A model generated the notes under the pieces. The model worked only from the letters and a program-made list of their open reading frames with translations, was not told the DNA's origin and searched no databases. Below are positions 14,706 to 53,732 of a stretch of DNA of 64,000 nt, one piece after another. The position numbers and the translations under genes were made by a program. Within the stretch, counting starts at the first letter, position 1. Each line of letters starts with the position of its first letter. Source of the stretch: Yuukianura sp. NJ FZ-2021 (lineage: Eukaryota); the NCBI GenBank assembly GCA_046563655.1, contig CM102288.1:5704001-5768000 (forward strand), written 5' to 3'.

Positions 14706-15151
14706 CCGTTACTAGGCAACCAGTATGTTAGGTTAACATAACTTAACCAGTCAGCAATATAATTAGGCCATGTAATGGCCATCTTAGTTGATGTCATTTT
14801 TAACAATTCTCGACGCAAAGTGAATTCTTAAAATTTTATAATTATTTGTTATATGTTCATGTATTGGTGGCTTCACATTTGACACGAAAAGGGAAAAGAA
14901 GAGGGAATGCAAATATTGTTTTAGTTCTTTTCGTATTTGATCATTACTTCAAGATGGCCTGGAATAATAAATTCCAGGCCAAGCATGAGCATGATGCTAT
15001 TGATCCGTATTGAAAATTATTCAGTTAAATTCTCCACCAAAGCAGGAAAGGAACACCCCTAACAAAGTTCAGTTTTAATAAGTTAAAACTAAGTTTTCAC
15101 ATAGTTTTTCCGTTTATTTTCTCCAGCTTCTAATATTTTGCATGCTTCGAA

Positions 15152-18100: not shown

Positions 18101-18404
18101 ACTGACTGAGTCAGGCGTAATATTTGGTCGCGGGGCAATATTTGGCGCGGAAGAAAAACGCCGTCAAGGTAGACTAACTCCAAAGTTCGGACTAGCTTCA
18201 CGACTGGAGAAATTAGGTTTGCAATCCCGAGTGTGCTTAATATTTCTTGTTCTGCCATTCGGAGCTGTGTTGGCATTGGTCTCTGCAATATTGGAATCTA
18301 CGCTGCACCCAAACAGTACGTCAATTTGTACCAAAATTTCCACGATTGTTGAGAAAATTAAAGCGAACGTGGATCACTTTCGCCTGTATTTTAATAAATT
18401 GTGA
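15152..18404 (+). CDS. Divergent ionotropic receptor (IR/iGluR-like chemoreceptor), copy 1
   Basis: Exons 15152-16061 and 17083-18404 (phase 1). Signal peptide; DYLQPFTLKTW + TM1; LVLTNGYKGIVTTSL (equivalent of the SYTANL helix); LTESGV; KLGL..C-terminal TM. Confidence 0.8.
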
Positions 18405-26114: not shown

Positions 26115-26935
26115 GAAATTTGTATAGAACTCGGCATTTGAAAAAAAAATTCAGAACTAACAGAATCGAACTGTATCTCTGTTTTGAAATGAATCTAACA
26201 CTTGCTTTAAACTCTTGAATGCAAAATTTTCAGTAATGGATGGCTCCGCAGCAATCGTTAACGAAATTTTTTTTCTTCCGTTTCTGTACGTAAAACTTAG
26301 ACGTTTTTGAAATTAATGGTTATCCTATGTTCCAAAAATGTATGTGCAACTAAAATTAGTAAGTGTTTAAGTTGTCTTCCTTCCAGACGTGTGTTTTCTG
26401 CTATTATATTTTTTCGTGCACGTAATGGCTTATTTCGTTAACTGCTGTCATTATTTGCATTTTTAAAAATGATCGAAGAAAAATGAAAAATGCCAAGGTT
26501 TATACCTATTATAATAGCAAAGCTATTATTATAATCTTACAATCCTTATTTAATCAATACTGATTGTCATAAACAAACAACGTATTCTTAAAAACTTTTT
26601 AACTCCTAACTTTGAATTCCCAAGTTCCTGTTTAAGGAATAAGTCCTGAGGGTCGTAAATAAAAAATTGGAGACCAAGGTTTATTGATTTTTGAGTTGCT
26701 GATCGTTCTGCCACATCACCACATACCTACGTTTGCACATTTGAACTTGACGTTATTTTCAAATCCACGATTCTTTTCTCGTAATTCGCAGTTACATTTT
26801 CCACCAAGGTAGGCACGGTACATTCCTAACACAATCTTAGTTTTGTTCGTTCATCTTCTACGGGATCTCGTTTCTCATAGTACTTCACAAAAACACACCT
26901 AATATTAGCACTACTGCAGTTTTACATATTTCAAA

Positions 26936-27475
26936 ATGCCAATATTTTTTGCCGATATTTTTCTGCTGATACTTTTTAGTTTAAATTCTTTTGGCGTTAC
27001 GCACGCAAGTTCTGCCTTTATTGAATACATAAACTTGGACTTGTACTTGGGTGGGAGTTTGGCAAGTTGCTACAATCATGTTATTATGTACTCCAACTAC
27101 ACAAATATTTACAGTTCATATGCACTAACTCTAGCACAAAATAGGAACATGGCGTATCCGAGGCGGCAAAGAACAAGCTTCTGTAAAAGTATTACACAGA
27201 CCGGAAATATTACGGAAACAACTACTCCGTCATTCTGTGCACAAGACATGCCGCACTACATGACAAAGAGGTGCCCATGTATTGGGGTAATCGGCATTTT
27301 TCCACACATAGGCTTTCCGGAATTTGATGCTTTTGATTACTTGTACTTGTATTGGTTTCCGTTGCCATTTCTCATTAGACAAGAACCGAATCGTCCACCG
27401 ACCTTCAATATAGACTGGAAGGTAAGCAAAACCATATCTGCTTATAGGATGCAAAACATTCGAGTGCTAATCGAG
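26936..27475 (+). pseudogene. Truncated IR paralogue (5' part of exon 1 only)
   Basis: High similarity to 15152 and 29144 (INLDLYLGGSLASCYNHVIMYS..) up to YRMQNIRVLI, then unrelated sequence and a stop at 27532; no TM-encoding exon follows. Confidence 0.82.
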
Positions 27476-27957
27476 TGCCAAATTTCTAATAAAAATTGTT
27501 TGCATCAGATGAACACACGGTATTTATATTGATGGAATTATTTTCTGATAGCACTGACAGTGTTAATTCGACTCTTATGTTTTGTGTCATTTATTAACGT
27601 TATTTTTGCACCTTTAATACCAAAACCAAACCCACGACAAAATGGACAGTGTGGCACTATGTATTGCGTTACGGCAGAGCACTTATTACCGCAAGATGCC
27701 GCTTAAGTATTGAAATACTTAAAAGGTGAGCTCGCAATTTATAATTAAAATTACAATTGTTTTTGTAAATTGTAAATATTATTACAGTTTAACATAAATC
27801 GTATGTTTCCGTTCTACATTTGTTCCATGCTCTTTGTAGTTAGGATTAATTATAGTTTAATTTTGTAGTCTAGAAAAATAAGTAATTGCAAATAATTAAA
27901 ACAATATTTGAAATATTAATCATAATTAAACCGAAAATGAGTTATGGACTTGTTCTA

Positions 27958-28262: not shown

Positions 28263-29143
28263 TTAGCACAATGCTCGTTGAAATAAAATATTCAACGTTG
28301 CTTCTTGTCTAATAAACTTGGATTCTTTTTAAAAAGAGAGACGGAAGTCACGAGGTAGTTGTTTCGATCAACACTGAAACTGAGAAAGACAAAAGTTTAA
28401 CGTGTATGTGTATGCTATTTTCGAAACTGATGCAAACGCTATTAGCGAGTATGGTCTAATTGTAGGTAAGTGGAGTCCGAATTCTGTAAACTTTAGTCAT
28501 ATGTTATAAACAGAAGATAATCTCAAAACGTTTTTTTTGTTTAGATTCAACGGAAAACAAGAAATTCCGGGTAGCCCATAATAGTGTTAAAAGTTTCAAT
28601 TTATGTCTATTTTGACATTGTCGACGTGAACAAGGAAAGCTATTTATAGAAGTAAATAATTTTTTCTTATCACCTTGCTGATGCGTTCTCTGGATATATT
28701 GTTTTTTTTTTCTTCCAGTAGGTTCCTTCGCTATCAAGTCTGTCATTTTTGTCATTTTTCAAAATTCTAGAAGAAACCCTTATTGCTAAAATTATATATT
28801 TACTTATTCTGTCTTTATTTATTAATTTAGCAAGACTGACTGGCTTGAAGATACTACAACTTTTCGTTTGACACGACAAACGAGAGAATTGAACTATCAC
28901 TTTTATTTTAAAATTTGTGTTTAATCATGACTTCATCATTGTCCATTCAATAATAAGTTGGGGGTCAAGCAAGGTTGCTATTGATTTATGAGTTGGCGAT
29001 GCTAAAATGCATGGTTCGTATTGGACATTATTCAGTTAAATTTTCCACCCAGGCAGAATCGGAACTTCCGAAACCCAACAAAAACTTATCGCTAGTGTTG
29101 TTCGTTCTTTTACTCCGGTGTCTCATACTTGGCATATTTCAAA

Positions 29144-32023
29144 ATGTACCGCAAAGTCATTCTGCCAGTATTTTTAGCCTTAAATTCTATTGGCTTAACA
29201 TTCGCAAGTTCAGCCTTCATTGAACACATCAACTTGGACTTGTACTTGGGTGGCAGTTTGGCCAGTTGCTACAATCACGTTATTATGTACTCCAACTACA
29301 CAAATATCTACAGTTCATATGCACTAACTCTAGCACAGAATAGGAACATGGCATCTCCAAGCCGACGGTCAACTAGTGCCTGTAAAAGTGTCACATGTAC
29401 CGGAAATGCTACAAACGCATACTATGCAGTTGACATGCCACACTACTTGTCAAAGTGTTGCCGATGTATTGGAGTAGCAGGCATTTTTCCTCAGACAGGC
29501 TCTCAGGAATTTGAGGTTCTTGAGTATCTGTTCATTTACTGGTTTCCGTTTCCGTTTCTCAAGAGAGAAGAACGGAATCGTTCAAAGATCAATAGTGAGG
29601 ATGGCAAAATCCCATTGACATACAGAAGGCAAGATATTCGTGTGCAGATTATACAAGATAGTTGCGGTTTCAAAAATGGCGAGCAAATGACAAATATTAA
29701 CTTGACGTCTGTTGTAAAGTATGAGCATAGACCGTCTGTAAATCTAGTTATAGTGAAAGTCGTCTACATTGAATGCAGTGTGAGGGCCCTTACTAGCAAA
29801 TACAAAATTATACTTGCAGTTCTTGTACGTGGAATATCGAATTTTGAATCATTAGATCCCCTCCCTCTTCCGCCGTTGCTGGATTTTGAAGTCTATAAAA
29901 AGCGACTTCTCAAAACATTGCCAGTTAAAGTAGTTTCACATGCAATCGATGAGGCGCATCAGCTGTTATTTCATTCAATACGAGATTTCGTGCTGGTCCA
30001 ATACAACCAAAGTCCGGCTTTCGACGCAGAAGCAGGTAGATGCACGTCTTATAGTTCGAATCAATTGTCAATTGTCTAGAAGACCTTCGCTTAACCATTG
30101 ATCTTAGTATTCATAGCAACCTAACTAACCAACGCACCGAGCGTTCAGCGAAAAGAACGAACGTTTTAGTAGAAATCTCGAACAACACCAAACTACATTC
30201 AGAATTGTTCGAATAATAAGAAGGTAGTTGATGAAAAACGTTAAAAATATTTAAACTGAAGTTAAAGTGAATTATAAAAAAGCAGAAATGGGTTTTAATT
30301 GACTTTGCAGTTTTTTAGATGTCTTTGGAAGCATTTTCAACTTTGTTAATTATGTTGTTTAAACAGTTTCGAATGTAGCTTGGGGTGGTGTGAGATTTTC
30401 GCAAACAAGTTCGCATGCTTTCGGCTGAACGCTAACCAGAAAAACTCCACGGTTTTTTTAGGTTAGGTTGCTATACAAGTCATGTTAGTAGTACTAGTAC
30501 ACCTAACAGTGTTTTGTTTATTTCTCATTTCAGCAAGAATTGATCTGCTTACGTTGTCCTTTTCGTCCAGAATTTCCTGGGCCCAGGCTTGGAACATTCA
30601 ATTCTTGCCAACGCAAGAGTATGTCTTCTTGTGTACTCCAGAAGATTTCCTACAACTGGGGCTAGCCGACTACATCCGTCCATTCACGCTTGCTACATGG
30701 GTTTCTTTGCTGTTGTGTTGCGTTGCAGTTTCTACATTTTTTATGGCCTGTCCCAAGTACAGAGTTGTGTCGCTGCAAATTCCGCTATTTCTCTACTCCA
30801 CACTGCTTGATGTAGGCTACGTGCTTACAGTTATTCCGGGCATGCGTGGAAAGGGACTACAAGCATTTACCGTAACATTTCTGTTGATGGCTCAAGTGCT
30901 AACCAATGGATACAAAGGAATTGTAACTACATCACTTGCACTTCCATTCCCAAAACAGGAAATCCAGTCTCTCGAAGAGGCAATTGATCAGAACTATACA
31001 TTTGTGGACGAGGCTAATAAGTACCGGCAATATCATGATTGTTGCAAACACAATGATCTACTCAACAAGGTCCTGCAGGGAACCAATGACGATAATAGAT
31101 TCATAAGGAATGGGCAAACGTGCAAAGAGTATGTTACTTCCGTTGCACAACTTTATTGGATAATAAAACTAGAAGGTGCTAGGGTACTGCTGGAGACTGA
31201 GGCTTGGCAGTCAATGACAGAAACTGCAAGTGAAGAATTGAGCCAAATTAAGCACCAGAACAAGAAAGATGCAGTTTACAAACATCGGTTGATACGAGAC
31301 CTTCACATACTGCCATGTGATGTAACCGTTAAACAGCATCTTGCCCAATGCAATAAATCTTTTTATATTCAGACCAGCTTTTTAGAGCCCACTGTTGGAA
31401 AGAAATTTTTGGATAATTTAGCAAAAGCAAAGTTTCACAATCCCAACGGTAGAATCTACACTTTTATTGATAAAAGTATTTTTGCATACGATCAAAGCTA
31501 TGGAGTTATACTTCATAGTCCAGATGAATACGACTTTTCAAGGAGTTTGTCACAAATCACGGAGTCAGGCGTTCTGGTTAGTTTCGGGGCAATGATTGCC
31601 GCTCAAGAAAAACATGGCATTTCTAAAGCCACCAAGGGAGTACGAGCAGATGGTGAACCAGAGAAATTAGGAATGAAATCCCGAATGTGCTTAATATTTC
31701 TTCTTTTGCCGCTTGGAACGCTGTTGGCATTTGTTTCTGTGGCAATTGAAGATAATCTCCACCCTAATAGTACGTCAATTTGTACCAAAATGTCTACAAC
31801 GGTTGACAAGATTAAAAGAACAATGGATCGCGTTCTTCTGCATTTCAATGGCTGGGGAGGTTGCGTTAGAAAGGAATTCCTCGAAAGTAAAACTGCACAA
31901 ATCCAAAAGAGTTTAATTGACATTAACAACTTCACGACTTACTTTGCCAGAGAAAATAGTCAATCGACAAAAAAGATTCATGTAGGCACAATTAAAGATA
32001 CACAATCACTACCTGATCTCTAA
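29144..32023 (+). CDS. Divergent ionotropic receptor, copy 3
   Basis: Exons 29144-30035 and 30534-32023 (phase 1, same position as copy 1); DYIRPFTLATW, VLTNGYKGIVTTSL, ITESGV, C-terminal TM. Confidence 0.8.
30114..30473. mobile_element. Degenerate MITE in the intron of IR copy 3
   Basis: tagcaacctaac..agcgttcagcgaaaag is inverted relative to ctttcggctgaacgct..gttaggttgcta. Confidence 0.55.
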
Positions 32024-32438: not shown

Positions 32439-33961
32439 TTAACATTTCTTGAGAGAAGAGACTTGGTCGTTGAAGTCAATGGAGCCGAACCAACGTGAAG
32501 CTTCGTTGAAGGGTCCGTTCAATTCTTCACATCTCCCGCCACAACCGTGGTCAGCACACATCCGAACACAGTGGCCATTAGTGTCAACGGAGGAAGTGAC
32601 ATTGTCAAATCCTTCTGGCAAGTCAAAGCACTCGTCACCATTTAGTGTCACCGGAAATTTTGTGGCTGAAACAAAAAAAGAAATGAAAAAAAAAAGTTTA
32701 AACAGTTTCGCTTGAAAATGTCATCCAAATTCAAAGTTTGCCGCCAATATTTTTCGAATACAGACAGATACTGAGACATCTATGAAAGGCACTATTTAAC
32801 ACACTAACAAAAAACCTACTTACTGCCACCTGTAGCCCCACAATCCAAAAATACAACTTCTAGGAAAGTGATATAAAGGACAGAGTGTCTATTTAATTTG
32901 AATGACACGGGATCGAATCCCACACCTTCTTAGAGATTTTTTATATACAGATTTTTGTGTTTTACCTGAAAAGTACGCATCGGAGTAGAGGTTCACAGTA
33001 ACAGTCTCCTCAGTCTCCGGAAGTTCATCCGTCGGCGGAGTTTCTGTCGTTTCCGAGGATTCGTCGCCTCCTACGACTTGCTGGGTACTGAGGCTTCCCA
33101 AAATGAAAGACAACAAGAGTTCCCGCTGTCTCAATTTAGCGTAGGCGTCCATCGCACGAGCGGCAGCGTCTAGTTCTTCGTCAGAGGCTGTTTGTGGCAT
33201 TGGCGCTTCAGTATTTTCCAGTTCCTTAATCCAGTCTCCATTTTGGCGTGGTTCTTCTTCACTTGGACATTGAAGTGGTGGTGCACATTTAGTCTCTTGT
33301 TGAATCTAAATTAATTAAATTAATTAATCAAAATAACTATACATTTAATAAAATAATAACAATTAAATGAGAAAATCACTACAAGATTCAAACATTGCTC
33401 GAAACATGGCCGATATCACTCACCATTGCTTCAGTCTCGGTAACGTCCACGTCGTCCTCGTTTGCAACTGCCGCAGGATCGGTCGCGGTAGTTTCAAATT
33501 TTGCGACAAAAATCATTAGCACGTTCTATAAGAAAAAAATACGAAAAGAAAAATCAAAAAATAAAATTGTGTATAGCGTTGTAGACATTTTTTAAATCTT
33601 TGATTTAAAGTTTGTTATTCTATTCAGTTTAATAGTTACATTCATGAAACCTTTCAATTCAGGCAGTAATTTGTTACTGTAGGTGTGAGATACCAAGGAA
33701 TAAAATATATTATAAAAATATATAAAATTAATAAAATGATATATTTATTATAATGTGACATACCTTCTGCTCAGTGTTAGGTTCGTTGGATCCAAGCATC
33801 CACATAAGGCAGAAGACAACCAGGAGTCCCAACATGGCCGCCATCAAGCACTTTCTGACTCCATAGCAACGTGTTCCGCCTTGATCCGGATTTGCTGGTT
33901 CGTCCATCCTGGAATAAGGAAGCGACGGTTCTTCCTTGTTTCCAAAATTTAAATTCTTCAT
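32439..33961 (-). CDS. Type II membrane protein with acidic stalk and C-terminal beta/gamma-crystallin-like domain
   Basis: N-terminal cytoplasmic part, TM LMAAMLGLLVVFCLMWMLG, E/T/P-rich stalk, then VNLYSDAYFS|ATKFPVTLNGDECFDLPEGFDNVTSSV..CVRMCADHGCGG..FNDQVSSLKKC*. Internal exon boundaries near 33300-33530 are approximate. Confidence 0.72.
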
Positions 33962-34627
33962 TTTGAAAAAAAAATTAAAGTGGAATTCGAAATTGGTTTT
34001 TAGTTTTTGAAACTTCAAAGCTACGTGTGTTCTCCCTGCAGAAGTTCGACTTGGAATGAGGTGAGTCATTCGAATTTGAGAATTTGATGGCTAAGGGAGG
34101 CAGCGTCAAAAGTTCAAAGTCCAGTAAAACAATGAGAGCATTAGAACGGTTATGCTGAGACTAAAATAAACAATGCAGAGGTCAAAAGGTCAAATTCATC
34201 CAACAAGCTTCTTGTCTTGTCCCTTATTTCTTAACACAACGCTTTTGTTTTACTCTCGTGTTCATTTAAATTAATCTTAACTCAGCAGAAGGTTTAAAGA
34301 TGCATTCTGCATAATCAGCAAAAACTACAGTCAGACTTCGAAAGAAAAATTAAAACGCTGAGAAATCACAAATTAAACATATTTAAAAAAAATTGTAGAA
34401 ATGAATTTTCTTTTTACACAAAAATTTATCCGCCATAAAAACATAGCTTAGAATTTTCATGAAGTTTCCAATTTGACTTTATTTATTCATTCAAAATCAG
34501 CCCACAACCAATTGAATTATGCTCTTTTACAAATTTTAAAACTGAATTCCGTAAATCAATGAGTTTCGTAAATCAGAGTAAATTCCGTAATTCCGTAAAT
34601 TCCAAAATTCCGTAAAATTCAGTAAAT

Positions 34628-35560
34628 TTACGATTTGATTTCCAAGAAATTCCACAAGTAATCTGGATCGCGTTTATACGCAGCCTGCGTGTCACTCGTG
34701 TAGAATTGCACGTACTTCCGGTTGGGTCCGATATCCTGGGATGCGTACGTCACGATACCTCCACTTGGCTGGTACCTGTAACCAGGTTCCAAAAAAATTC
34801 CAAAAAAGAAGAAAAAATCTAAAAACTAAAATTTAAATTTTAAACTCCCGCCACCCTTACCGCTTGTTGTAGATGGCGTACGTTCCAGCAATTCCCTCTC
34901 CAGCCTCAATTTTCCAGAGACAATCATCTCGGTACTTGCCGCCCGGCAAGTAGTCGTGGTCCTTGTTACCGTCAACGTACAAAGCAACGAATTTGCCACT
35001 CGCACTGCCTCCTCCCCATGTCACAACGGAGTTCGGTTGAGCTCGGTTGATGAACTGGTAATACCCGGGTACCTCCGACTCTACCACCTTCCACTGGCTA
35101 TCGTAGTACCACTTTTCACCGGCAGAGTACCATTTTGCTTCAGAATCATACACGATTTGTATGTAATGCAGTTGGCCGCCCAATTTGTCGTTGGACCACG
35201 TCGCGATACCTAAATTTATAAATATATACTAAATTTATTCAAAAATATATTAAGTATATCTAAATATACCTGAATATATCAGTATATCTAAATATACCTA
35301 AATATGTATATCAATATATTTAAATATATAAATGGAATCATGTTTTTTGTATAAAAATAACCTCCACTCTGAAGTACAATCTGGTACCAAGTGTCCAACT
35401 TGAGAGGCGTTCCTTGTACCGTCTGTTGTACTACCGGAAAATGACAAACCGTTGGAACTTGTCCACCAGAAGTACACGTTACGGTGACTTGTGCCGGTTG
35501 AACTGTGGTGATGTGACGCGTAACGGTAGTCGTAGTGCAATGTTGAATTGGTTGAGACAT
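34628..35560 (-). CDS. Cytoplasmic beta-trefoil (ricin-B-like) protein with T/V/Q-rich N-terminal extension
   Basis: Three exons. Three ~45-aa repeats, each [W/Y]Y-x-[I/F]..[I/V]-x-T[W/Y]..[Y/F][I/V]-x-[I/L/F].., ending in DSQW, DCLW and DYLW; no signal peptide. Fold call is by repeat pattern only. Confidence 0.6.
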
Positions 35561-36479
35561 TCTGCAAAATTTGGATTTTGAAGAATTTGGATTTTTAAAA
35601 ATTTGGAAAGAATTCCAAGCACCGTAGCCTCCAATGTGTTTCTGCAAGTGGAGAGCGAGGTATATAACACTTTTTTGGTAATTGGTTTGTCAAATGTGGC
35701 TTTTAATTTTTTTTAATTTCAAATTTTAATTAACCTATCGTGGTGGTTTAAATTCATAGAGTAATTGCTTACCCTGGGTTTTCAAGGTTTTTTTAAATGT
35801 TACTAACTAAAAGTAATTTCCTGAAAAAATTTAAGCGGTTTTTGTCTTATCGAAAACGGACAGTTCCGGGAAAAGGGCTCAACATTTTCAAGGCGACGGT
35901 TTCACAAAGAGATTAAAAAGTTGGTTTAAATATCTGTGGTTACTGGATTGGCTAGTTGAATAGTTTGGTTCTTCATAAGCTCTATGCAAAAACTATCTGC
36001 TAGTGCAGGTATTTTGCAGTGAAAAAAAGACAAACACAATTTCATGAAAACACGGTTGGCGTATAAGCTTGAACGGGCCATTGCTACTATTTTTACTGAT
36101 TGGTTGTTACTTTGAATTTCCTTAAAAAAGTAGTTTTTGTTATAAGTTTTAAACAAAATGACATTTTTAAATCCAACGTACAAACATTTGACTTTCAGTA
36201 TGTATTATCCTTTTCATTTCAATTAAAAATGTCAAACATCATACAACAACACAAAATGCCGTCACGTAGAAGCACTTAATAACATTTCCTGAAAACTTCA
36301 ATTTTTTTCATTCTTCTTTATGGGTGCACTTTTATCAGTTTAACTCTCAAAGGATCCGGTCTATTGTTACGCAAACTCATAAATTTTTCTGTCCAATTTG
36401 AAAGACTTGAGGTTCACTGTGAATAGCAGTTCAAAACTTGCAAAATATTTCGAAGGTTAGTCTATTTGACAATTCAGAA

Positions 36480-37833
36480 ATGTATTCCATAAAATTTTTA
36501 TGTTCAGTTATTGTCATACGTCTTTCTCTAGCTGGTATGTAAGTCTGTACTACTAAACTATATAGTACATAGAAATTTTTTTACATCAAATCCAATTTTT
36601 CTGCACTACTTAAAAAGTATTGAGTAATATGTTTTTAAATTAGGAGCCAACATACAAGAAGAACCTTGTTCAAGTTACCCGGGCGTTTGTAAGTCCAAGG
36701 GTGACTGTCCCCAAGGCTCACTTTCAAAGATTGGCGGTGCTTTTAGTTGTCCGAGTAGTCCTGACGACATTGAATGTTGTCCAACTGGTGGAGGCGGTAA
36801 TTTCAAATATTGTTTAGGTTAGGATTTGAAAGAAGGAAGATGCAGTGCAATGGTGAGAGCGATTACCCCGTAATGGTAATGGTCTGGGTTCCCCTCCAGC
36901 CAAGTATTTTTCCTCTCATTTTCTTGCAATATACATCGATTTCAGTTTTACCGAAATGGCATGGATTTCAGTTTTTGACTGTATTTTCACTTTTTAAATG
37001 TATTAGAAATGGCTTAATAAGTTCAAAATTTTTTCTTTTTTTTATTTTCAGGAGGTTATACTCAAGAAGAACCTTGCAAAAGTTATCCTGGAGTCTGTAA
37101 GCCCAAGGGGGAGTGCCCTCAGGGATCGCTTACAAAAATTGGAGGAGCTTTCAGTTGTCCCAGCAGCCCAGATGACATTGAATGTTGTCCCACTGGAGGA
37201 GGCGGTAATGTCAAATATTGTATTAAAATTATATTAACACATATTACACATACTATACTATAAATATGCTAAATATATATTTCAGGAGGTTATACTCAAG
37301 AGGAACCTTGCAGAAGTTATCCAGGCGTGTGTAAACCCAAGAGAGATTGTCCCAACGGATCCCTTACGAAGATTGGAGGAGCTTTTAGCTGTCCGAGTAG
37401 CCCGGATGACATTGAATGCTGTCCTGGAAACAACGGTGGGGGCAGTGGCGGAGGGGGTGGGGCAATAGTTGCAGCAGCTAGGAGTCAGATTGGTGTTCCT
37501 TATGTCTGGGGTGGTGGGAATCAACATGGCCCCACCAAAGGTGGGTTCGATTGTTCTGGTTTGTCGCAGTATGCTGTGTTCAAGGGAACGGGTCGCCTGA
37601 TTCCCAGAACTGCGCAGACGCAGCATGACTTTATAGGCTGTGCATCCGTTCCTGTTGGATCAAGACAACCCGGAGATATAGTTTTTTGGGGCAACAATGG
37701 AGGTGTGTATCATGATGCCATTGTATCAGGTCCAGATATGGTAATTCATGCACCGGAAACAGGAAAAAATGTGCGGGAAGTACGAATTTTTACAAGAAAT
37801 GAGCTCAAAGGAATTGCACGTAGATGCTACTGA
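36480..37833 (+). CDS. Secreted NlpC/P60 (peptidase C40) peptidoglycan endopeptidase with three N-terminal 6-Cys repeats
   Basis: Exons approx. 36480-36534, 36644-36796, 37052-37204, 37286-37833. IGVPYVWGGG..GFDCSGL (catalytic Cys), IPRTAQTQ, QPGDIVFW, YHDAI (His), VIHAP (third residue). Repeat EEPCxSYPGVCKxKxxCPxGSLxKIGGAFSCPSSPDDIECCP occurs three times. Confidence 0.93.
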
Positions 37834-38238
37834 AATCCCTACAGAAAAAGTGCTACTCTACCGCTTCCGTTTCCACGTGGAAACGAAACGAACCCAAACA
37901 TGAACATTTGTCGTATTGACTAAAAACGTATTTACATATGCAAAAAAAAAATTAAAAATTTGGTATTTCCATGGGCGTGTGAGTGTGAACATGTCATAGT
38001 TGTGTTTCACACGACAGGGTATCTATAGTGGCCATTAGCATAATTTCTTAATCCTCTGCTGCTTTAAATATTACAGGTCAAGGTTTACCGATTTCACAAC
38101 ATTCGCCATTTTCTTTGCTCAAGCAACAAATGTTCTTGCTCATTCCGTTTATTCCGCCGTGTTTATTCGAAACATTCAGTTTTTGTCAAATTTCACACCT
38201 CAATTTCTGCTTATCTTGGCTTATATAAATATTTATCG

Positions 38239-41200
38239 ATGCATCTCAACATCTCTCTCGTCATATTTGTTTTCGTTTTCGTTGGCGTTAATCTCAGCAA
38301 CTCTGCCCTAATGGAACACTTAGATCTGGATTTGTATTTGGGCGGTAGTTGGGCCAGTTGTTACAATCATGTAATCATGCACTCCAAATATACAAATATA
38401 CACAGTTCATTTGCCATAACATTAGGTCTAGGTGGACAAATGTGGAAGCCGAGGCGTAACGAACATAGTTCCTGTGCCAATAAGACGAAAACGGGGGACG
38501 TCGTTGAAACAACAAGTCCTGCGTTCTGTGCAAAGGACAATCCCCACTACACGACAAAGTCAATAGATTGCATTGGTGTCATCTCTATTTTTCCCGAATT
38601 CGGCGCAGAACTTGAAATTTTTATGCACTTGGATAACTACTGGTTTCTTAATTTCTTTTACGCGAAAAGAGATGGAGACTCAGGGAGTCCTGGGACTGAA
38701 AAAATCATTTACACACTACCATCATCGTCATACCGTATGCAAAACACTCGGCTGCAAGTAGTAACTAACATATGCGATTTTGAACGGTTCAATGGAATTT
38801 TTTATCTAATGTTTATCAACTTATCAATGAAGAGGTATTTCCGATATATAAGTCGATTCGTAGTAAGAGTAATCTACGAGGCATGTGATGTTACAGTAAC
38901 CAGCGGTAAATTTCACGTCATGATTGGAGTTCCCGCGAATTTTATATTGACACTTGTTGTGTTAAATATCACAACGTTACCCCTACTACTTGAGTTTCAA
39001 TCATTGCACAAACAAGTGTTGAAAACAATACCGATGAAGATGAAACTTGCCGAAACCGAAACTTTGTCTGAAACTTTGCAGATATCGCAGCTTACTTTTC
39101 CGGCAATATATGAGTTCATGATGGCTGCGTTTAACCGAAGTCTCTCCGTTGACGAAACACGTAAATTCTTGACAGTTTTGAGTTGTTGTATGTAAACTCA
39201 TTTTATCAATCAATTATTATTTTATTATTAGTTTATTGGATTTTGGCCAATGCCCTGTTATCAATAACAGTCCTGGAGTTTGTTTAAAGTATTAAAATTA
39301 TTTTATTGTTTTATAATCTATTGTCTAGCGAAAGCAACTCTACGGTTAGGCTAGGCTACGGCGTTCGCAAATTCAGCGCCATCTTTCGCTACTTACGTAT
39401 ACCAGTTTATGACGGTTTTATCTTCAATTTGTTTTGATACGTTTATGGGGCTTCTTCAAGGTTCTTTCTTCTTTGGCAACCGAATTCTATTTCCTACAAC
39501 AGGTTGTCCAATAATTCGGGGTTTTCAAAAATTTTGCATCAAATAGTTTTCTCCCAATTTTAGTTATACGTTTTCCATCAAGTCTTTTTCAAACTGAATC
39601 TCATCACTCATCAGGAATAGGAACAAAATTGGACTAAGGCCAAAAATTGCCACAGAAATGGAGGTTAAGCGGTTTAATTTTTTTTCCCAAGATATTAAAA
39701 AAAACCTAAGTTATTGGACAACCTGGTGTAGAAAATGTTTTTTCTTTGTTTACAAACGTTGGATCTTCTTGTTCTAGGTACGATAACGGGACATTATATT
39801 ACTTATTCGACTGGGATCGTTGATCCAGGCGATGTGAAGTTCCCTATTAAGCCCATGAAAATGTATGCGGTTACATGCTATCGCGACGCCTCACTGCTCG
39901 GGCTTAAAGACTACACACGTCCCTTTACTGGAAATACATGGATGTGGTTATGCGTATCATTTGTTGTCGCTTTTACGTTTTTTGCGACTTGTACACACTA
40001 CAGGGCTGTATCGCTTCAAGTTCTTGCGTTCATGTACTCAACATCGTTGGAAGTCGGCTTCTCACTGAGTAAAGTGCCAGGCAAGATTGCTATATCGCCC
40101 ATTTATACAAATGTGCTAACAGGTTATGCCATAACTCCGATTTTTTTTTTCTAAAACAAAACACAGCAACTTTTATATCAATTTTATTGAGACGGTAGAG
40201 GTCGCGTGAATTTTCCTCCAGTCAAATACATGAAAAAGTTGATTTTCAATGAATTTTTCGAAATTTCAATTCCTTCAAAAGTAAGTGTAAAAGTGAATTT
40301 TTCAAAATTTTGCCACGTCAAAAAGTTAGAGAACAGGTGAGTTTTTCACGAGACCAACATTTCGACACGGTAGAGGTCACGTGAATTTTCCTCCAGTCAA
40401 ATACATCCAAAAGTCAAATTTCGTCATAGTTTTTATTTCAAATTGCTATCGCAACGCAACAGCGTCAGATGTGCGGTTCTAAAACTTTGAAAACTTGAAA
40501 AAAGGAGTTATGGTATAACCTGTTAAGAAAAATAAAAAAAAATTCAACTTAAACAACCTTGGTTCCAGGCATGCGTGGGAAGGGGCTGCAAGCATTCACT
40601 GCATTATTTCTGTTGATGGCTCTTGTGCTTACAAATGGATACAAAGGGATTGTTACTACGTCGCTTGCGCTGCCATTCCCTGGGAAAGAATTGGATTCTA
40701 TTGAAGATGCATTGGCCCAGAACTACAGTTTTGTCGAAGATGCTGAATTACATCAAATATACCGTGAATGCTGTAACCACCCAAATTTATTGAATCGGGT
40801 CCTAAGTAAGGGTGATACACTTGATACATTGTTTGTAAAGGACGAAGAGACTTGCGGTGAGTATGTTACCTCGTCTGCACAATACCGCTGGATGATCAGA
40901 TTTAAATATTTTGAAATAGAGTTTGTGGGTGCCTCCGACCCAAAGCCAGTTACTGAAAATGTGCATGAACGGCTAAATAAAATTAGAGAGCAAGGCAAGG
41001 CTAGAATGTACGAATACAAGTTGATTAAAAACATTCAAATTTTGCCATGTAACGTAACTTTAGAACAAAAAATAGGACAGCAGAAGAAGGAATTCTTGAT
41101 AAAGTCTACTGTTATGGCCACTTCTTCGTCCAAGAAATTCTTAGATTTGATTTCCCAAGTGGATTTCGAAAGGAATAGTTCTGGTAATTGCTATTCGTTT

Positions 41201-41584
41201 TTGGACAAAACTTTGTTTGCACAGGATCAAATGTTTGGTATCCTATTGCATGTTTACACTACAGGTACTGGTACAGGTGCAGCTAGAGGTTCACACTATA
41301 GCTACGATGTAGCAGATAGTTTGAAACGTCTCGCGGAGTCTGGCATTATGGCTGGTCGTTATAATATTTACGATTACGTAAATATTAAACGAAAGCTTAA
41401 GACGATCTGGTCCTTGGTGGGACATCAAACTGCGGGACCACAAAAATTAAGTTTGGATTCCAGGGTGTGGGTGGTATTTTTGTTGTTGCCGACTGGATCA
41501 ATTTTGGCACTCATTTCGGCTATGGTAGAAGTTGTAGTGATGCCGAACTACATTCATATCAAAGCTCTTGTGACAAGTATGTAA
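38239..41584 (+). CDS. Divergent ionotropic receptor, copy 4 (carries an extra intron)
   Basis: Exons 38239-39160, 39778-40080, 40569-41584; LDLDLYLGGSWASCYNHVIM, DYTRPFTGNTW, VPG|MRGKGLQAF, LTNGYKGIVTTSL, LAESGI. Confidence 0.78.
39497..39728. mobile_element. TA-flanked MITE (Tc1/mariner-like) in intron 1 of IR copy 4
   Basis: TA|caacaggttgtccaataa ... ttattggacaacctggtg|TA. Confidence 0.75.
40119..40523. mobile_element. TA-flanked MITE in intron 2 of IR copy 4
   Basis: TA|acaggttatgccataactcc ... ggagttatggtataacctgt|TA (1 mismatch in 20 bp); internal ~40-bp direct repeat acggtagaggtc(g/a)cgtgaattttcctccagtcaaatacat. Confidence 0.85.
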
Positions 41585-41846
41585 GTGTAACCATATTTGG
41601 AAGGACTCATACCAATTACATTACTAGAATTTGAAAACAATTTGAGTACGTTTTAGTTGAGATTTTAGGTAATTTTTGATAGCTTATTTGACTGATACCT
41701 TAGTATAATCATTGTAGTAACCCGTATTTGTATGTGTTTATTGGGGGAGTAGACATCTATAGTTTAACTGGCACACGTTGGTGTTTCTAACGTTCTTTAA
41801 ATGTAGCTATGTCTAGGTTAACTATTATAAGGTTCTTTGAAAATTG

Positions 41847-42381
41847 GGTCGAAGTAAACTTGGGCCCCCCGCCTGTCCCCACCCGTTCAAATTTTCGCGC
41901 TGCTTCAATTGTCCCCACCCATTGTCCCCACCTGGTGGGGACAAATGTCCCCACTTGGTGGGGACAAATCTGTACCCACCAGCCGTACACCGAGTCCCTC
42001 TAGCGGCTGAAGTGGAACTAGCGAATTCGAGCTGGCAACGTTGTAGCATTGCTCCGTTGTACCCACTCAGGGCAGATGTAATCAACATAGCGAAATTCAA
42101 TAAGTCAAACCTACTGACGTAATCAGTATTGCGTGCTTTACCAAACCTAACGCCGCGCCTTCGGCGCGGGAACATATAACAGGATTTATCAAATCAAAAA
42201 GGAAAAAACGTTGCCAGGTTGAATTCAAAGGTTACTGTATTGCCGCTGGGTGGACGCACTGCTGTTGGTTGTGGTGGGGACAAATGTATCCATCCGGTGG
42301 GGACACTGGGTGGGTACAATGGAGGCAGCGCGAAAATTTGAACGGGTGGGGACAGGCGGGGGGCCCAAGTTTACTTCAACC
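41847..42381. mobile_element. Non-autonomous DNA transposon with ~85-bp GC-rich TIRs and 8-bp TSD (GG termini; Merlin/hAT-like)
   Basis: TSD GAAAATTG at 41839-41846 and 42382-42389; TIR ggt(c/t)gaagtaaacttgggccccccgcctgtccccacccgttcaaattttcgcgctgc nearly perfect. Confidence 0.92.
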
Positions 42382-43099
42382 GAAAATTGGGTAATTGGGT
42401 TGGGTAGTTGGGCAGTTTGATTAATTTGAAACTAAGATTATCTTGCGATTATTCGTCAACAGATTAAATATGTTTGGCATCCCTGATAATAAGATACTTA
42501 ACAGATATACGTGGAAAAAATATTTCCTTAAAACAGGCGAAATATTTCAATATTAAATTTTTGGATCAAACACCTTCAAATATTTACTTAATTAGCATTA
42601 AGGCATGGGAAAATCAATAAATATTTAGTACTAAAAATATTGATTGCGCTAACATCACGGTCATTGCAGCTAAATATTTTTTCCATGCATAAAATAACAT
42701 ATGTAGTTAATTTAACATGTTACAAATGCACTAGTGATAACACTGATTGACTGATTTGAATAAAAAGTTGTGTGTTCACAATTGAGACACCGTCTTTACT
42801 TCAACCCAATCTCGAAATAAGAACAGTCGGAGTAATCCGATGAGTCCTAGGATTGGTGTTACTCCATATAGCATTAAAATACGGTGGAGATCAATTGAGG
42901 GCTGTTGTACCCTACTGCACTTTTTTTTTTGTTTCTTGCAGAAGTTGTAAAGTTAGTACTTCGTCTTTACCTATTGCCCATCGTTCTACAAGGAAACGAT
43001 TCAATTCGAACCAGGGTGAGTGCAGCAACGAAGGAAACTCGGTTGGATATCTTAATTAACAAGGAATCTTCCGTAAAGGATAACCGGAGGGCTGGCAAA

Positions 43100-45718
43100 A
43101 TGGCGGACGAGTTTGATGTGGACGAAATGCTAGAAGCAGCATATGCTCGGAAATCGGTAAGATAAGCGACGTTTCAACGATTATTCATTACGGTTAGTTT
43201 TGACGAAGTTTAGGTATCACTGAAATGATAGCCCTGGTTGGTTGGAATCTTATCCGTTTTTGCCCAATACGCGAGTAATCAAGTCCACTACTATTTTAGT
43301 TTGAGACTTTTGGAGAAAGTAAACCTAATTACGTACGTATTTTCTAGCCTAACTCTAATTCCAAATGGTTGGTTAGGTTCCAGCACTATGGGGTTGGATT
43401 CTATCTTTTTGGCCCAATCCATTTTACTCAAGTTGGTAAAAACCAGTTGGTTTGTCATCAAAATTTTACTAATGCTTTGATTTTTTCTTTTCTTTTTTCC
43501 ATGACCTTGTTTTGTCCCCTCAATCGTTGATGATTTCCTTACTCCTTGTTTTACCTCCCTCCCTACCCTGTTTATCCTTCCTTTGTAAAAAATGAAACGG
43601 AATACTACATATCTGGATGAATTTAGAGTGACGAACACACGAGCTCTAAGAAGAACGGAAGTTATCACCGGGATCGTGGAAATGAATCTGGAAAGTAAGT
43701 GAAAGAAAAATAAATCAGCTGTTGTAGGAATTTTTAACTTTTGGTTTAAACATTGTGTTGTTGTTTTCAGTGATGATGAGGAAGAGGAATACGGCCCAAA
43801 GGTGTTGAGGAAGGACGAAAAAGAATCACGGTCACACAGAAGAAGTAAAAGTCGGGATCGTGATAGGAAGTCACGCAGAAGCCGTAGCAGAGAACGCAGA
43901 CGAAGGAGCCGAAGTCGGGAACATCGCCGGAGTAGGAGCCGGGAGAATCGACGACGAAGTCGTAGTAAGGACAAGGACAGACACCGTGATAAGGAGGGGA
44001 GACGATCTTCGCCGCTGCGTGAGAGTCGTGGTAGGAGACATGAAGGAAGAGGTCGTTCCAGAAGCGGCACACCGACGAGACTTCGGTTGGGTCCGAAACG
44101 GTCACGGTCACCTTTACAACTTGGATCGGACACTCCTTTGTCACCGGAAGAGCGGGACGCTCGAACCGTTTTCTGCATGCAACTTAGCCAGCGGATTCGG
44201 GCAAGGGACTTGGAGGAATTCTTTTCTACTGTCGGGAAGGTGAGAAGTCGAACTTGAGATAAGAGCAAGTTAAAATTAATGTAATTGATAATTGAGCTCA
44301 TCTTTTGTTAGGTTCGTGATGTGCGTATGATCACTTGCAACAAAACCAGACGATTCAAGGGAATTGCCTACATAGAGTTCCGTGACATAGACTCAGTTGC
44401 TCTGGCTCTTGGTCTAAACGGACAAAAACTGCTTGGAGTTCCAATAATCGTGCAACCTTCACAAGCAGAGAAGAATCGTGCAGGTCAACTGGCAAAGGCT
44501 GGACAACTGGCTGCAGCCATGGCTACTTCTACACCAGGACCAATGAAACTTTATGTCGGATCGCTTCACTTTAACATCACAGAAGACATGCTGCGCGGAA
44601 TATTTGAACCGTTCGGCAGAATCGACGAAATCCTTCTGATGAAGGACCATGAAACAGGACGGTCGAAGGGATTTGGATTTATGACGGTAAGTATGCGACG
44701 CAACACAAGTTTAATTATTCGATGCTTCAATTGAATCAATTGAATTGTTACATGATTTAATTGATGGATCGATTGAACTACTTTAGTTTCACGAAGGAGA
44801 AGATGCCAAGAGAGCAATGGAGCAACTGAATGGATTCGAAATTGCTGGAAGGCCAATGAAAGTTGGTTATGTCACGGAGAAGTCAGAGAGTACGTTTTAC
44901 CACAACCCACAAACGTTTTTGGACACAGATGAAATGGATAGAGCCGGAGTCAACTTGGGAGTGACTGGACGACTCCAGCTGATGGCAAAGTTGGCCGAAG
45001 GTAACAATATGCAATATGTTATGCTAGTTAGTTAAGTTAGTTGGATAAGTTAAAACATTGTTTGATTATACTCTTTGACTGAATTGTCGATGCTTTATTA
45101 GGTACGGATTTGAAGTTGCCCGAGGCTGCCACGACTGCTCTCAACATGCAGAACTTACCGTATCAGCAACAAGGCTCTTCCCCTCAAGCTACGCCGATTC
45201 CACCCATTGCAACGCAGTGCTTCATGCTGTCCAACATGTTTGATCCCTTGCAGTAAGAATTTTGAATTTTCCCTCCATTTTTTCACTTAAAATTGTTCAC
45301 ACAATGTAAATCTGGTTGGTATTTTAGGGAACTTGGAAACACACGATTTGAGAGTGAGCTCAAAGATGAAGTTCTGGAGGCCTGTGCACCGCATGGAGGA
45401 GCAGTTCATGTTTTCGTGGACATGAACACACCTTCGGGCAATGTCTATATCAAGTGTCCATCAGTGAGCGCCGCAGTTGCTGCTGTGACGAACCTGCACG
45501 GAAGATGGTTCGGCGGAAGAGTTATCACGGGTAAGATTCTGCCTTAAGTTATAAACTGAAGTTAAGCTATGTAAAGATAACTCAAGACGTTTCACAACGT
45601 TTACTTGACGTTTTTCTTTTCATTTTCAGCTGCCTATGTCCCTCTCCTGAACTACCACAGTTTATTTCCCGACGCCATGGCGGCACAGACAGCAGTCTTG
45701 CAACCTTCAAAGAAATAA
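43100..45718 (+). CDS. RBM39: RNA-binding protein 39 (Caper): RS domain + RRM1 + RRM2 + UHM
   Basis: MADEFDVDEMLEAAY, RS domain, PEERDARTVFCMQLSQRIRARDLEEFFS, PMKLYVGSLHFNITEDMLRGIFEPFG, GRLQLMAKLAEG, IATQCFMLSNMFDP, LHGRWFGGRVIT|AAYVPLLNYHSLFPDA. Confidence 0.97.
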
Positions 45719-46218: not shown

Positions 46219-46959
46219 ATGGTTCCTTTACTTCTCATCGTACTTCTGGCTAACTTTAAAGATGTAGCTGAGGCAGCTAGTCTAGGCAACGACACTACTT
46301 TCGAAATGGAAAACTCAAACGACAATCGTAATGTAATAAAAATTAACTTAGGTTAACTATGGAGTATGAATGTAGAAAAATTGAATTTTACACACCAGGA
46401 AGTCTCAAAAATATGTCATAGAAGTTACTATAGCGCTGACTAAATTTTGGGTTTTATAGCTTTTTTTGGAACGAGAGCCGATGTGGTGAAATGTGACGAT
46501 CAGAATCCGTGCCCACCATACGCCTCAGCTTCTAAATACAAGAACGAATGCGTTCTGGGAGTTTGCATTCGTTGTATCAAGTACCATAAAGTGTGTTCTC
46601 GAACGGAAGAAGGCGGGCTAAGTCCATGTTGCAAAACAGCAGGAAAAGAAGACGTACTATGTTATAATTCTCATGATCAAGGTCATAGGGACGCTGGTAC
46701 CTGCAGTGAAGATCCTTGTACCGGACATGAGCTGATAGCGGGCTACGGCATAACAGGTGTTTATAACAATGCCAAACGCTGTAATATTGGTTATGGAAAG
46801 AACCCAGACCGGTACCAGTACGTGTGCGTTGGTAAGGTGTGCACGGAATGCGGAGCGGAAGGAGCCCCTTGTCAGTCGGATTTCAATTGCTGGATTCCTG
46901 GCGCTTCGCTATGGTTCCTTTACTTCTCATCGTACTTCTGGCTAACTTTAAAGATGTAG
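46219..46959 (+). pseudogene. Cys-rich secreted protein copy A, truncated at ~46881 and fused to the 5' flank of copy B
   Basis: Exon 1 46219-46327, exon 2 from 46460. Homology to copies B/C stops at CQSD; the sequence then continues as ttcaattgc(t)ggattcc..atggttcctttac, i.e. the paralogous 5' UTR and exon 1. Confidence 0.8.
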
Positions 46960-47749
46960 CTGAGGCAGCTAGTCTAGGCAACGACACTTTCGAAACGGAA
47001 AATTCAAACGACAATCGTAATTTAAAAAGAAAAAATTACTTACAATAAAAATGGAGTAATGTAGAAAAATTGAATTTTACGCACCAGGAAGCCCCCAAAA
47101 ATTTGTCAACGAATTACTACTTCTAACTAAATTAATGATTTTAGTAGCTTCTTTTGGGACGAGAGCTGATGTGGTAAAATGTGACGAGAAGACTCCATGT
47201 CCAACGTACCCCAAAGGTATTAAATACAAGAACGAGTGCATTCTGGGAGTTTGCGTTCGTTGCATCATGTACAATGAACTGTGTTCTCGAACCGAAGCAG
47301 GCGGGCTTGATCCATGTTGCAAAACAGCAGGAAAGGAAGACGTACTATGTCGTAATCCTAAGCTTACCAATAGTAGGAGTAATGGTAAATGCGTTGAAGA
47401 TATTTGTGCCAGCGAACATATGCTGTTACCGGGCTTCTCCAAGTTAGGGGATTACAACAATGCCAAACGCTGTGACTTTGGTTATGGAAAGAACCCAGAC
47501 CTGTACCAATACTTTTGCGTTGGTAAGGTGTGTACGGAATGTGGAGCAGAAGGGGCCCTTTGTCAGTCGGACGCCGATTGTTGCAAATTTGCGAGGTGCG
47601 AAACGGAAAAGAAAAAGAAAGTTTGCCGACGGAAATGCGGAGATCAAGGGTGGATTTGCACAGACAGACCAGGCTATTGCTGCAAAGGACTCAAATGTGA
47701 AGTGTACGAATCAGGCGGAGGTAGATCAACCAACTACAACTGTGTTTGA
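46911..47749 (+). CDS. Cys-rich secreted multi-knottin-like protein copy B
   Basis: Exons 46911-47016 (SP MVPLLLIVLLANFKDVAEA + acidic linker) and 47148-47749; three C-x6-C-xn-CC-xn-C-xn-C modules. Confidence 0.8.
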
Positions 47750-48330
47750 AAACTATTGGAAATTTTGTAGTGGGGCAAGTGGGAGGTTTTGAAACTATTT
47801 TTAGTAATCTGCTGTAGTTGCTGTAGTTTGGAATTAGCTAACAAAGAAAATAAATTTTACGATCGTATACGCCAAGGAACATGGAACAAGTTAAATTTTT
47901 TCTATTAATTTTGGTAATATATTTGTCAATTTTGAAGACTTGCATGACATTGTTAGGAGAAGGCTAAAATTCTGACACGAGCACCAATGAGTTAAGAAAT
48001 TCAATTTTTAGAGTCAACTTTTAGGTTTAATGGGCACAAGGTCAAGAGATAGAATGGAATACACAATATGTCCCTCCAACAAAATATTATGCTATTTAGA
48101 CTAACATTTTTATTTTACCGTATTTTCTCGCAGACAACACGCTCTTTGCGTATAACTCGCATCCTCAAACTCTCGCATAATGTATACGTTGTCAAAAACA
48201 GGTTTATAAATTCACGAATTTTAACAAAAGTCTATTTCGCTAATTTCCCGAAGTTTCACAGATTACGCGTGCGTTATGTTCGGGAAAATATGGTTACTAA
48301 CAGACATGCCACAAATATTTAGTCTCCATG
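47750..48330. repeat. Duplicated copy of ~50615-51345 (3' flank plus relic of the aminoacylase 3' end and intron)
   Basis: Collinear matches, e.g. tttagtaatctgctgtagtt, atacatttgtcaattttgaa, atgggcacaaggtcaagag, ggaatacacaatatgtc, caacaaaatattatgcta, taccgtattttctcgc; ~200 bp of the last coding exon is missing. Confidence 0.85.
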
Positions 48331-48930
48331 CAGCTAGTGTTATTTTATTTTTCCTCATTTCTTTACTACATATTTTGTGCTTTCTTCATATCTCCAAATA
48401 TTTCGACGTTTTTGAATAAAAGTGCTTAATATTTAAATATTTCCCTGGTTTTTAGAAAATATTTTTGGCACGTTTGGTAATTAGGTTAGGTGTCAAATTA
48501 CGCAGGTATATGTTTAATAGTGACTAATAGTCTCGTATACAGTCTTGTTTTTCAACAAAATCTGGAGTAAGTAAACCCACAAGTTTTTTTTTTTAATTTT
48601 TGCTCGACGGATGCCCGGCCTTGGACCTCAGTGGAGCACGGCCCTGCTTTGTTTTTGTCTCTTTTTTTTTCGAAGAAACCTTAGAAAGAGGTCGTTGTTT
48701 CAATGTGTTCCAATTTTCGTAAAAAAGCCTAACGACTAGAACTGTCCATCATTTGAAGCTATTGAATTTGAAGCTATGCGATATCTAGGGCAATCCTTGT
48801 GACAGAATAATTGTGAATAACAGCAAGGTAGATTTCTTTTCAGTTCAGTAGATTTCAGTTCTTTGACGCAAAACGTTCGAACCGTTTCAACCAAATACCA
48901 TTTGATCTGTTGGATTCCTGCCGTTTCGCA

Positions 48931-53113: not shown

Positions 53114-53732
53114 TTTTGGATCTTTTTATCGTTATGTTATGCGTTGCAACTACATATTCCCATTAGATGCAATCAATGCATTTAAGGCCCGGTAAACGTT
53201 TTACCCCTATCATGTACTATCATATCAAAAATTTATCTTAAATTTAAAACAAAAAGTACTTCAATTAGAACAATACTGCTGACGTCGTTGATCGCTATCT
53301 ACAAAATTTATATTTGTATCACCTCTTTCATCTTCATCTAGAAGCACTTTAAAAAATCAATCAACCTTCCTACAAATATTGTTTGTTGAATTTTTTGTTC
53401 AAAATTTCAGCCATTTTTCCGCTTTGAAAAAATTTATGATTGCGTGCCGAAACCTTTTTAATTTGGAATATTCTTATTAACATTATTCAATACGGTTGAC
53501 ATTTCATGTGGTAGAATACATTTAGAACGGGGTGGGTTGCAAAGCAATAGTTATCTCATGCAAATCCATTTAAGAAATTAATTTTTATATGAAGTTTCGT
53601 ATAGTTCTTTGAATTTTTTTTCGAGTTTTTCAAATCCAACCGTATCTGCCCTCAATCCTGACGCCTTGTCACATTGTCACAAGCTACCGCACATATAGGA
53701 ATTAAGCAACAGTGAAATTTTTAAACTAAATC

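Follow-up and report, generated by a model that had tools for sequence, protein, structure and literature searches.

How does an animal come to carry a gene for a cell wall hydrolase of microbial type, and what might the protein do there? The locus that raises this question lies in a 64,000-nucleotide stretch of the genome of the springtail Yuukianura sp. NJ FZ-2021 (the window; CM102288.1, positions 5,704,001 to 5,768,000), on contig 6 of an assembly of 98.7 Mb in 22 contigs. An initial annotation of the window had described a gene at 36480..37833 as an animal-encoded NlpC/P60 hydrolase, probably domesticated after horizontal transfer. We consider it fairly probable that this is indeed a single-copy domesticated springtail gene of microbial origin, whose product acts as a secreted peptidoglycan D,L-endopeptidase, with the history and mechanism set out below. 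The enzyme class is already known in arthropods from mites, and the novelty here is instead a shared six-cysteine module, whose three copies here make up half of the protein and were absent from the initial description. The reuse of this defensin-like module on two borrowed hydrolases and in free peptides within one animal is the part worth following.

The gene and its catalytic domain

That the four-exon NlpC/P60 gene is real is practically certain. Its joined exons (Table 1) give a 909-base frame encoding 302 amino acids, and all three introns are of the GT-AG type and in phase 1, in agreement with the three spliceosomal introns first proposed (splicing itself we infer). The catalytic domain is intron-free, as had been stated, with no intron within 37456-37830, and module 3 shares exon 4 with it, again with no intron in between. 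DNA contigs from four of five listed sequencing runs were placed on positions 33500-45000, those labeled X1-X3 coming from one sample, possibly the source of the assembly, and X5 from a second study. They bridge all three introns, and an X5 contig of 1,673 bases, at 37453 to 39099, links the catalytic domain to the gene that follows, whose family is repeated in the window at 15134, 26909, and 29096. The G+C content at third codon positions (GC3) of exon 4 is 0.36, compared with 0.38-0.41 in five neighboring frames, and a second springtail, Folsomia candida, has an orthologue. Bridging contigs, host-like GC3, and the orthologue uphold the earlier judgment that contamination is unlikely, and the signs of domestication considered here, namely physical linkage, introns, host-like composition, and an orthologue in a second species, were all found. 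Protein and Pfam searches of the host assembly returned one NlpC/P60 gene and no paralogue; the second family match over the cut-off is an LRAT-type permuted NlpC/P60 gene on contig 3 (12474306-12474938), which is the ordinary animal branch of the superfamily, and a third match fell below the cut-off. All four DNA runs give G at position 37697, against A in the assembly (Asn258 to Ser), which may thus carry a rarer allele.

Against the Pfam profile PF00877 (NLPC_P60), exon 4 scores 61.5 bits (cut-off 23, E 8e-17). In the alignment, Tyr193, Asp209, Cys210, His263, and His275 match the expected columns in the non-permuted order, so the domain is not of the LRAT type, and the Cys-His-His triad first reported is intact, its three members standing in catalytic columns. 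An AlphaFold model of exon 4 has predicted local distance difference test (pLDDT) values of 91-98 across the NlpC/P60 domain, and Foldseek aligns it to RipA with an E of 6.9e-11 and a root mean square deviation of 1.9 Å over 131 columns. Profile score and predicted fold therefore bear out the original C40 assignment. The domain is basic, with an isoelectric point (pI) of 9.45. The proposed signal peptide stands as a putative one: the N-terminal hydrophobic 8-mer averages 3.2, comparable with the F. candida and Blomia proteins, with an Arg directly after the hydrophobic core. Judged from these sequence features, the protein is likely to be an active hydrolase and would be secreted; its function may be antibacterial.

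Table 1. Positions of the NlpC/P60 gene, its parts, and the other genes that carry the module (window numbering unless a contig is named)
Feature	Position	Strand	Content and basis
Exon 1	36480..36534	+	Start codon and, at residues 1-18, a probable signal peptide; gene model, hydrophobicity compared with F. candida and Blomia
Intron 1	36535..36643	+	109 bases, phase 1, GT-AG; bridged by DNA contig X1 record 2
Exon 2	36644..36796	+	Six-cysteine module 1, Cys27-Cys64, spacing 6-5-13-8-0
Intron 2	36797..37051	+	255 bases, phase 1, GT-AG; bridged by X2 record 13
Exon 3	37052..37204	+	Six-cysteine module 2, Cys78-Cys115; 153 bases, same as exon 2; AlphaFold model (pLDDT 67)
Intron 3	37205..37285	+	81 bases, phase 1, GT-AG; bridged by X5 record 25
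Exon 4	37286..37833	+	Module 3, linker, NlpC/P60 domain, and stop codon
Start of exon 4	37286..37422	+	Six-cysteine module 3, Cys129-Cys166
Glycine-rich linker	37423..37455	+	Sequence; low pLDDT in AlphaFold model
NlpC/P60 (peptidase C40) domain and stop codon	37456..37833	+	Profile, alignment, model
Cys210 codon	37552-37554	+	Catalytic column by alignment
His263 codon	37711-37713	+	Catalytic column by alignment
His275 codon	37747-37749	+	Catalytic column by alignment
Extra cysteine pair Cys239/Cys301	Within NlpC/P60 domain	+	Alignment
Secreted GH184-like muramidase gene	Contig 7: 3897548-3899042	+	Single copy, four modules
Single-module peptide genes	Contig 3: 2058145-2058288 and 2045127-2045272	-	Predicted secreted

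A six-cysteine module, fused and free

Residues 20-170 consist of three six-cysteine modules of identical spacing, one beginning each of exons 2-4. The copies are 78-86% identical as protein, with synonymous sites near saturation, and the ratio of nonsynonymous to synonymous change for the three module-exon pairs (0.03, 0.07, and 0.10; module 1 versus the others, 0.03-0.07) indicates purifying selection. Together, the low ratios and the near-saturated synonymous sites are good evidence for translation of all three module exons. Over the first 17 bases, introns 2 and 3 differ at a single position, as tandem exon duplication would lead one to expect.

A Pfam scan of the module found no family, and a search of the ESM Atlas with it gave a single match, at 0.76. 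When longer proteins were searched with a module profile, 2 of 3,856 candidates matched, both of the springtail type, which is a weak negative. The AlphaFold model of the module is modest (pLDDT 67). When it was compared with 48,161 chains, six reached a Z of at least 2, and five of these six are β-defensins or defensin-like peptides (Z 2.0-2.7); Foldseek gave only weak matches, with E of at least 2.9. β-Defensins have the disulfide connectivity 1-5, 2-4, 3-6. The modules are probably disulfide-bonded accessory domains with a β-defensin-like fold. Cationic antimicrobial β-defensins carry a net positive charge. The modules, in contrast, are acidic (pI 4.3-5.0, charge -1.3 to -3.3), and on net charge they fall outside that group. 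A role in binding or stability is more likely than membrane killing; that the modules bind the cell wall in particular is a conceivable role to which we give somewhat less than even weight.

Three reciprocal searches place at least nine copies of the module, a lower bound, in four genes of the genome: the NlpC/P60 gene, a GH184-like muramidase gene, and two genes for free secreted peptides. In the contig-7 gene, the catalytic exon has no intron, and after it come four modules, with a phase-1 intron before each. Its catalytic domain resembles actinobacterial proteins and is weakly similar to two GH184 muramidases, 8b2h (E 9e-4) and 8b2e (E 4e-3), and the JGI protein P0123 is a relative of it in joined form, with three modules and 54% identity. 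In the contig-3 peptide gene that was followed to its end, a signal exon and a phase-1 intron precede one module, after which comes a stop. Each of the two contig-3 genes adjoins an alcohol-dehydrogenase-like gene, which looks like a duplicated block. The same module is therefore found both free, in two peptide genes, and fused to wall hydrolases, in two others.

A comparable double use of a cysteine-rich domain, in stand-alone peptides and as part of a peptidoglycan hydrolase, has been described in the mushroom Coprinopsis cinerea, where the bacteria-induced peptides DLP1-10 and the GH24 lysozymes LYS1-5 share a defensin-like domain (Kombrink et al., PMC6461984). The authors of that paper state that they know of no precedent for such free and fused use, and one of the DLP peptides contains the GYCPGP motif that is found in fungal modules. 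The comparison is one of descriptions. The mushroom system pairs GH24 with a 12-cysteine domain, whereas the springtail module sits on two unrelated enzymes, C40 and GH184-like. Other fungi have an SH3-type domain at the module position (PF08239 on P0058), and an SH3-like domain in that position of fungal wall hydrolases is reported to bind bacterial cells and to raise activity (PMC10394673). One could imagine that springtails use a modular antibacterial kit of the type described so far in the mushroom alone, in which a soil fungus or protist was the source of the NlpC/P60 gene and, with it, of the module, which then spread by phase-1 exon shuffling to a second borrowed enzyme, the GH184-like muramidase, and to free peptides; we rate this extension as rather unlikely.

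Relatives and origin

The closest database match is F. candida XP_021966771.1 (auto-named "peptidoglycan endopeptidase RipA"; 70% identity over 232 amino acids), which shares the signal peptide, six-cysteine modules, glycine linker, and NlpC/P60 domain but has two modules rather than three and Tyr rather than His at the third triad position. The GenBank model of this orthologue, OXA38281.1 (P0139), is fused to unrelated downstream sequence, unlike the RefSeq model. Among the best 120 of 956 matches, 51 carry an organism name, and these comprise 1 springtail, 39 fungi (34 ascomycetes and 5 Actinomortierella), and 11 Actinobacteria. When the clusters of 30 proteins were looked up, further top matches turned out to be mites (Blomia, Tyrophagus including Tyr p 38, and Oppiella) or, among fungi, Jimgerdemannia, Coniosporium, Cladonia, and Hortaea. 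Two "RipB-like" records labeled Rhagoletis zephyria (P0290 and P0292) fall inside the Tyrophagus Tyr p 38 90% cluster and are probably mite contamination of a fly assembly. The best 150 matches from 1.84 billion representatives held no further close protein except P0003, although the 50% clustering of that set can hide relatives. Bacterial genomes (best 80 of 570 loci) gave Streptomyces and Rhodococcus on top at 44-51% identity, and a metagenome scan (best 80 of 551 loci) reached 52% at most, with no close springtail-type contig. The best domain scores are 129 bits for mites, 123 for fungi, and 111 for bacteria.

Named animal matches are limited to F. candida, mites, and the two fly-labeled records, so the broad, vertically inherited metazoan clade that the initial annotation had named as evidence against transfer did not appear. 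For the mite enzyme, Table S33 of Xiong 2022 (PMC9113151) gives no match among the remaining arachnids and, among the remaining arthropods, only one at E 6e-5, so that a vertical history would need many losses. The gene very probably has a non-vertical origin.

We examined its placement in two trees of about 125 columns, with 73 and 75 hand-picked rows and rough bootstraps that are not fully settled; domains below 60 bits or with fewer than 75 aligned positions, and two duplicates of the query and orthologue, were removed beforehand. In the 73-row tree, the three springtail-type domains form a clade (99/86), whose sister group unites Jimgerdemannia with three taxon-unlabeled proteins (88/90); modules are present in two of these three. 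Springtails and mites meet only in a larger group that also takes in fungal and taxon-unlabeled rows (86/64), and a clade of 50 rows without any named bacterium (94/88) encloses springtails, mites, Jimgerdemannia, and ascomycetes. A constrained springtail-mite clade has an approximately unbiased (AU) test p of 0.46, and shifting the springtails to the bacterial side makes the tree 20.4 log units worse. In the 75-row analysis, which includes 44 bacteria, the tree with the 31 other rows held together lay 3.4 log units above the free search (p 0.59), whose tree had one Corynebacterium among them; there too, Jimgerdemannia and taxon-unlabeled proteins are nearer to the springtails than mites are (55/72). 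The phylogeny thus weakly favors a eukaryote clade over a bacterial placement, with no supported nesting in a donor lineage.

Two further characters bear on the origin. The Cys239/Cys301 pair, scored in a window of 2-3 residues, occurs in all 4 rows from springtails, in 14 of 16 from mites, in 1 of 7 from Mucoromycota/Mortierella, and in 12 of 174 that are taxon-unlabeled; it occurs in none of 35 ascomycete rows, 11 named actinobacterial rows, or 80 bacterial loci. The insertion before the GFDC motif that RipA and mite-type proteins have is absent in all three springtail rows of alignment A2 and present in P0006, P0007, P0013, and P0143. The trees, the cysteine pair, and the missing RipA/mite insertion therefore favor a eukaryotic intermediate, and we lean, without much margin of confidence, toward a microbial eukaryote as the donor. 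An actinobacterial, RipA/RipB-like source, as first implied, finds no support in the absent insertion, the lack of the cysteine pair in the named actinobacterial rows and bacterial loci, or the tree neighbors, which are Jimgerdemannia, mites, and taxon-unlabeled proteins of eukaryote-like type. What survives of the original HGT proposal is a likely microbial origin, with mites and fungi rather than Actinobacteria as nearest named relatives.

Several known proteins resemble parts of this picture. LytFM and the group 38 allergens of mites are likewise secreted, basic NlpC/P60 proteins of soil or dust arthropods with the same extra cysteine pair, and LytFM has been reported as horizontally acquired and bacteriolytic (PMC4600878, PMC5586350, PMC9113151). 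Jimgerdemannia RUS28352.1 is a near relative of both the mite and springtail proteins, but the mite enzymes are described as single-domain, with a RipA-type insertion, whereas in the springtail protein three modules are present and the insertion is missing. NlpC/P60 proteins of lichen and other fungi (cf. Caloplaca, Blastenia, Gallowayella, Cladonia, and Coniosporium) show the same order of parts, with a signal peptide, one or two modules ending CP...CC, a linker, and an NlpC/P60 domain without the insertion; their catalytic domains, however, lie within the ascomycete clade and have another cysteine pattern and Asn as the third residue. Mycobacterium RipA and RipB, Enterococcus SagA, and Trichomonas NlpC_A1 and NlpC_A2 (PDB 3s0q, 3pbi, 6b8c, 6bim) share fold and triad but, at about 22-38% identity and with other accessory domains, are not nearest relatives; the Trichomonas enzymes are reported to cut D-isoGlu-mDAP (bioRxiv 10.1101/320382).

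On the account that we prefer, a bacterial NlpC/P60 gene would have passed through a soil microbial eukaryote, a fungus or protist, in which such a module was already present, and the "module plus catalytic domain" unit would have reached springtails in one exon before the split from F. candida, the module exon afterwards duplicating in tandem. The papain-like Cys210-His263-His275 site would cut the stem peptide after γ-D-Glu, as proposed for mite LytFM, and the cut would loosen the walls of ingested or invading soil bacteria, serving digestion, defense, or both, while the three acidic modules may aid binding or stability. A number of observations weigh against this account. The third triad residue is Tyr in three of the four springtail rows, including the F. 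candida orthologue and its relative P0003, and Asp264, beside the catalytic His263, is rare. The bacterial-side placement is not rejected (AU p 0.078), and in the 75-row tree all deep forks are below 80, leaving the backbone poorly supported. Those lichen proteins that are named and carry modules have their place within the ascomycetes rather than beside springtails, and springtail modules resemble fungal ones weakly (65% probability in hhalign, an E of 6e-5 pairwise, hidden Markov model scores of 5-12 bits). In Coprinopsis, moreover, deleting the defensin-like domain left lysis by LYS2 unaltered (PMC6461984). In comparisons with a fungal set that is biased, having been chosen by motif including GxC and CP, 11 of 14 springtail modules scored above all 50 cysteine-fixed shuffles.

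Alternatives would read parts of this evidence differently. The non-rejection of the bacterial placement, together with the 44-51% identity of the best bacterial matches, would be expected if the gene had passed directly from an actinobacterium to a springtail ancestor and been fused by exon shuffling to the animal's own defensin-like module, the fungal likeness being convergent. The free peptide genes on contig 3, with their layout of signal exon, phase-1 intron, and module, could then represent that native module, short six-cysteine modules converge easily, and the fungal similarity is weak. Nevertheless, the bacterial-side tree is 20.4 log units worse, the cysteine pair common in mite rows is missing from all 11 named actinobacterial rows and all 80 bacterial loci, module 3 runs on to the catalytic domain without an intron, and both mite and fungal domains outscore bacterial ones; we regard direct transfer as unlikely. 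The shared cysteine pair could also reflect one acquisition common to mites and springtails, either through transfer between arthropods in soil or as an old arthropod gene since mostly lost. The joint clade is compatible with the data (AU p 0.46), and the mite cysteine positions had no counterparts among other sequences sampled by Tang 2015 (PMC4600878). However, the mite proteins in our alignments lack modules, all mite-like rows except P0153 have the RipA-type insertion that springtails lack, the free trees place Jimgerdemannia and taxon-unlabeled proteins closer (88/90 and 55/72), and the vertical form needs the many losses noted above (Xiong 2022, PMC9113151 Table S33). A common acquisition thus seems distinctly improbable.

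The departures at the active site raise a different doubt, which is that the protein might be a weak or non-catalytic peptidoglycan binder or sensor, or that the acidic modules (pI 4.3-5.0) damp the basic catalytic domain (pI 9.45). RipD provides an existing non-catalytic NlpC/P60 protein, and the Tyr substitution and the rare Asp264 point in the same direction. Yet the Cys, both His residues, the upstream Tyr, and Asp-Cys-Ser are all retained here, and the third position varies widely across homologues (His, Asn, Glu, Gln, and Asp); further, a specific inhibitory fit is unlikely because the same module occurs on an unrelated enzyme. We consider this reading quite unlikely. Contamination or a chimeric assembly, with fungal or mite DNA in the contig, is already largely refuted and extremely improbable. 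The nearest non-springtail relatives are indeed soil fungi and mites, the fly-labeled records in the Tyrophagus cluster show that such contamination happens, and among the DNA contigs placed none alone spans the whole 11.5 kb; but the F. candida orthologue, the host-like GC3, the second-study contig joining the domain to a gene family repeated in the window, and the module common to genes on contigs 3 and 7 all speak for a gene of the host.

Neighboring genes and implications

The surroundings of the gene are animal in part as first described: peritrophin CBM_14, P450, and RBM39-like genes lie in the window, but the two immediate neighbors have no Pfam match over the cut-off. On the plus strand, repeated two-part genes at 15134-18404, 26909-27532, 29096-32023, 38068-41584, and 53730-57067 resemble divergent ionotropic receptors, with a weak Lig_chan match (E 1.6e-4) in the 53730 frame alone. 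The head-to-head neighbor at 34631-35560 (minus strand) is a gene of small size and three exons that gives a weak signal for a ricin-B lectin (E 3e-4 in Pfam, below the cut-off; PDB E about 0.1), possibly another lineage-specific or foreign gene. At 46444-50410 (plus strand) are three tandem cysteine-rich, secreted-looking frames; the one scanned had no Pfam match. At about 39260-40795 and 41564-42715, contigs of all four runs pile up to a very high depth, with many loose ends, which indicates high-copy repeats, probably small mobile elements.

In the literature searched, only the mite genomics study joins NlpC with Folsomia, and its Table S32 marks the presence of the gene in springtails by shading; a prior mention there is possible (PMC9113151). 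The accessible supplements of the F. candida genome, which list genes by locus tag, gave no match to NlpC, P54, or peptidoglycan. Foreign genes are reported to be common in springtails, with 809 in F. candida (PMC5490193, PMC4987106). Because animal peptidoglycan hydrolases of foreign origin are known and springtails hold hundreds of foreign genes, one more borrowed enzyme is not surprising.

What the locus adds concerns what happens to such a gene after capture. The shared module ties two unrelated borrowed wall hydrolases to free peptides and thus shows the rebuilding of a captured gene. The cysteine pair shared with mite group 38, together with the fungal tree neighbors, makes this a case for testing eukaryote-to-animal against bacterium-to-animal transfer. 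The module itself, both small and testable, is a candidate cell-wall-binding domain of a new kind. If the modular kit described above were real, a single new wall-binding module would direct peptide-cutting and glycan-cutting enzymes onto the same bacterial wall.
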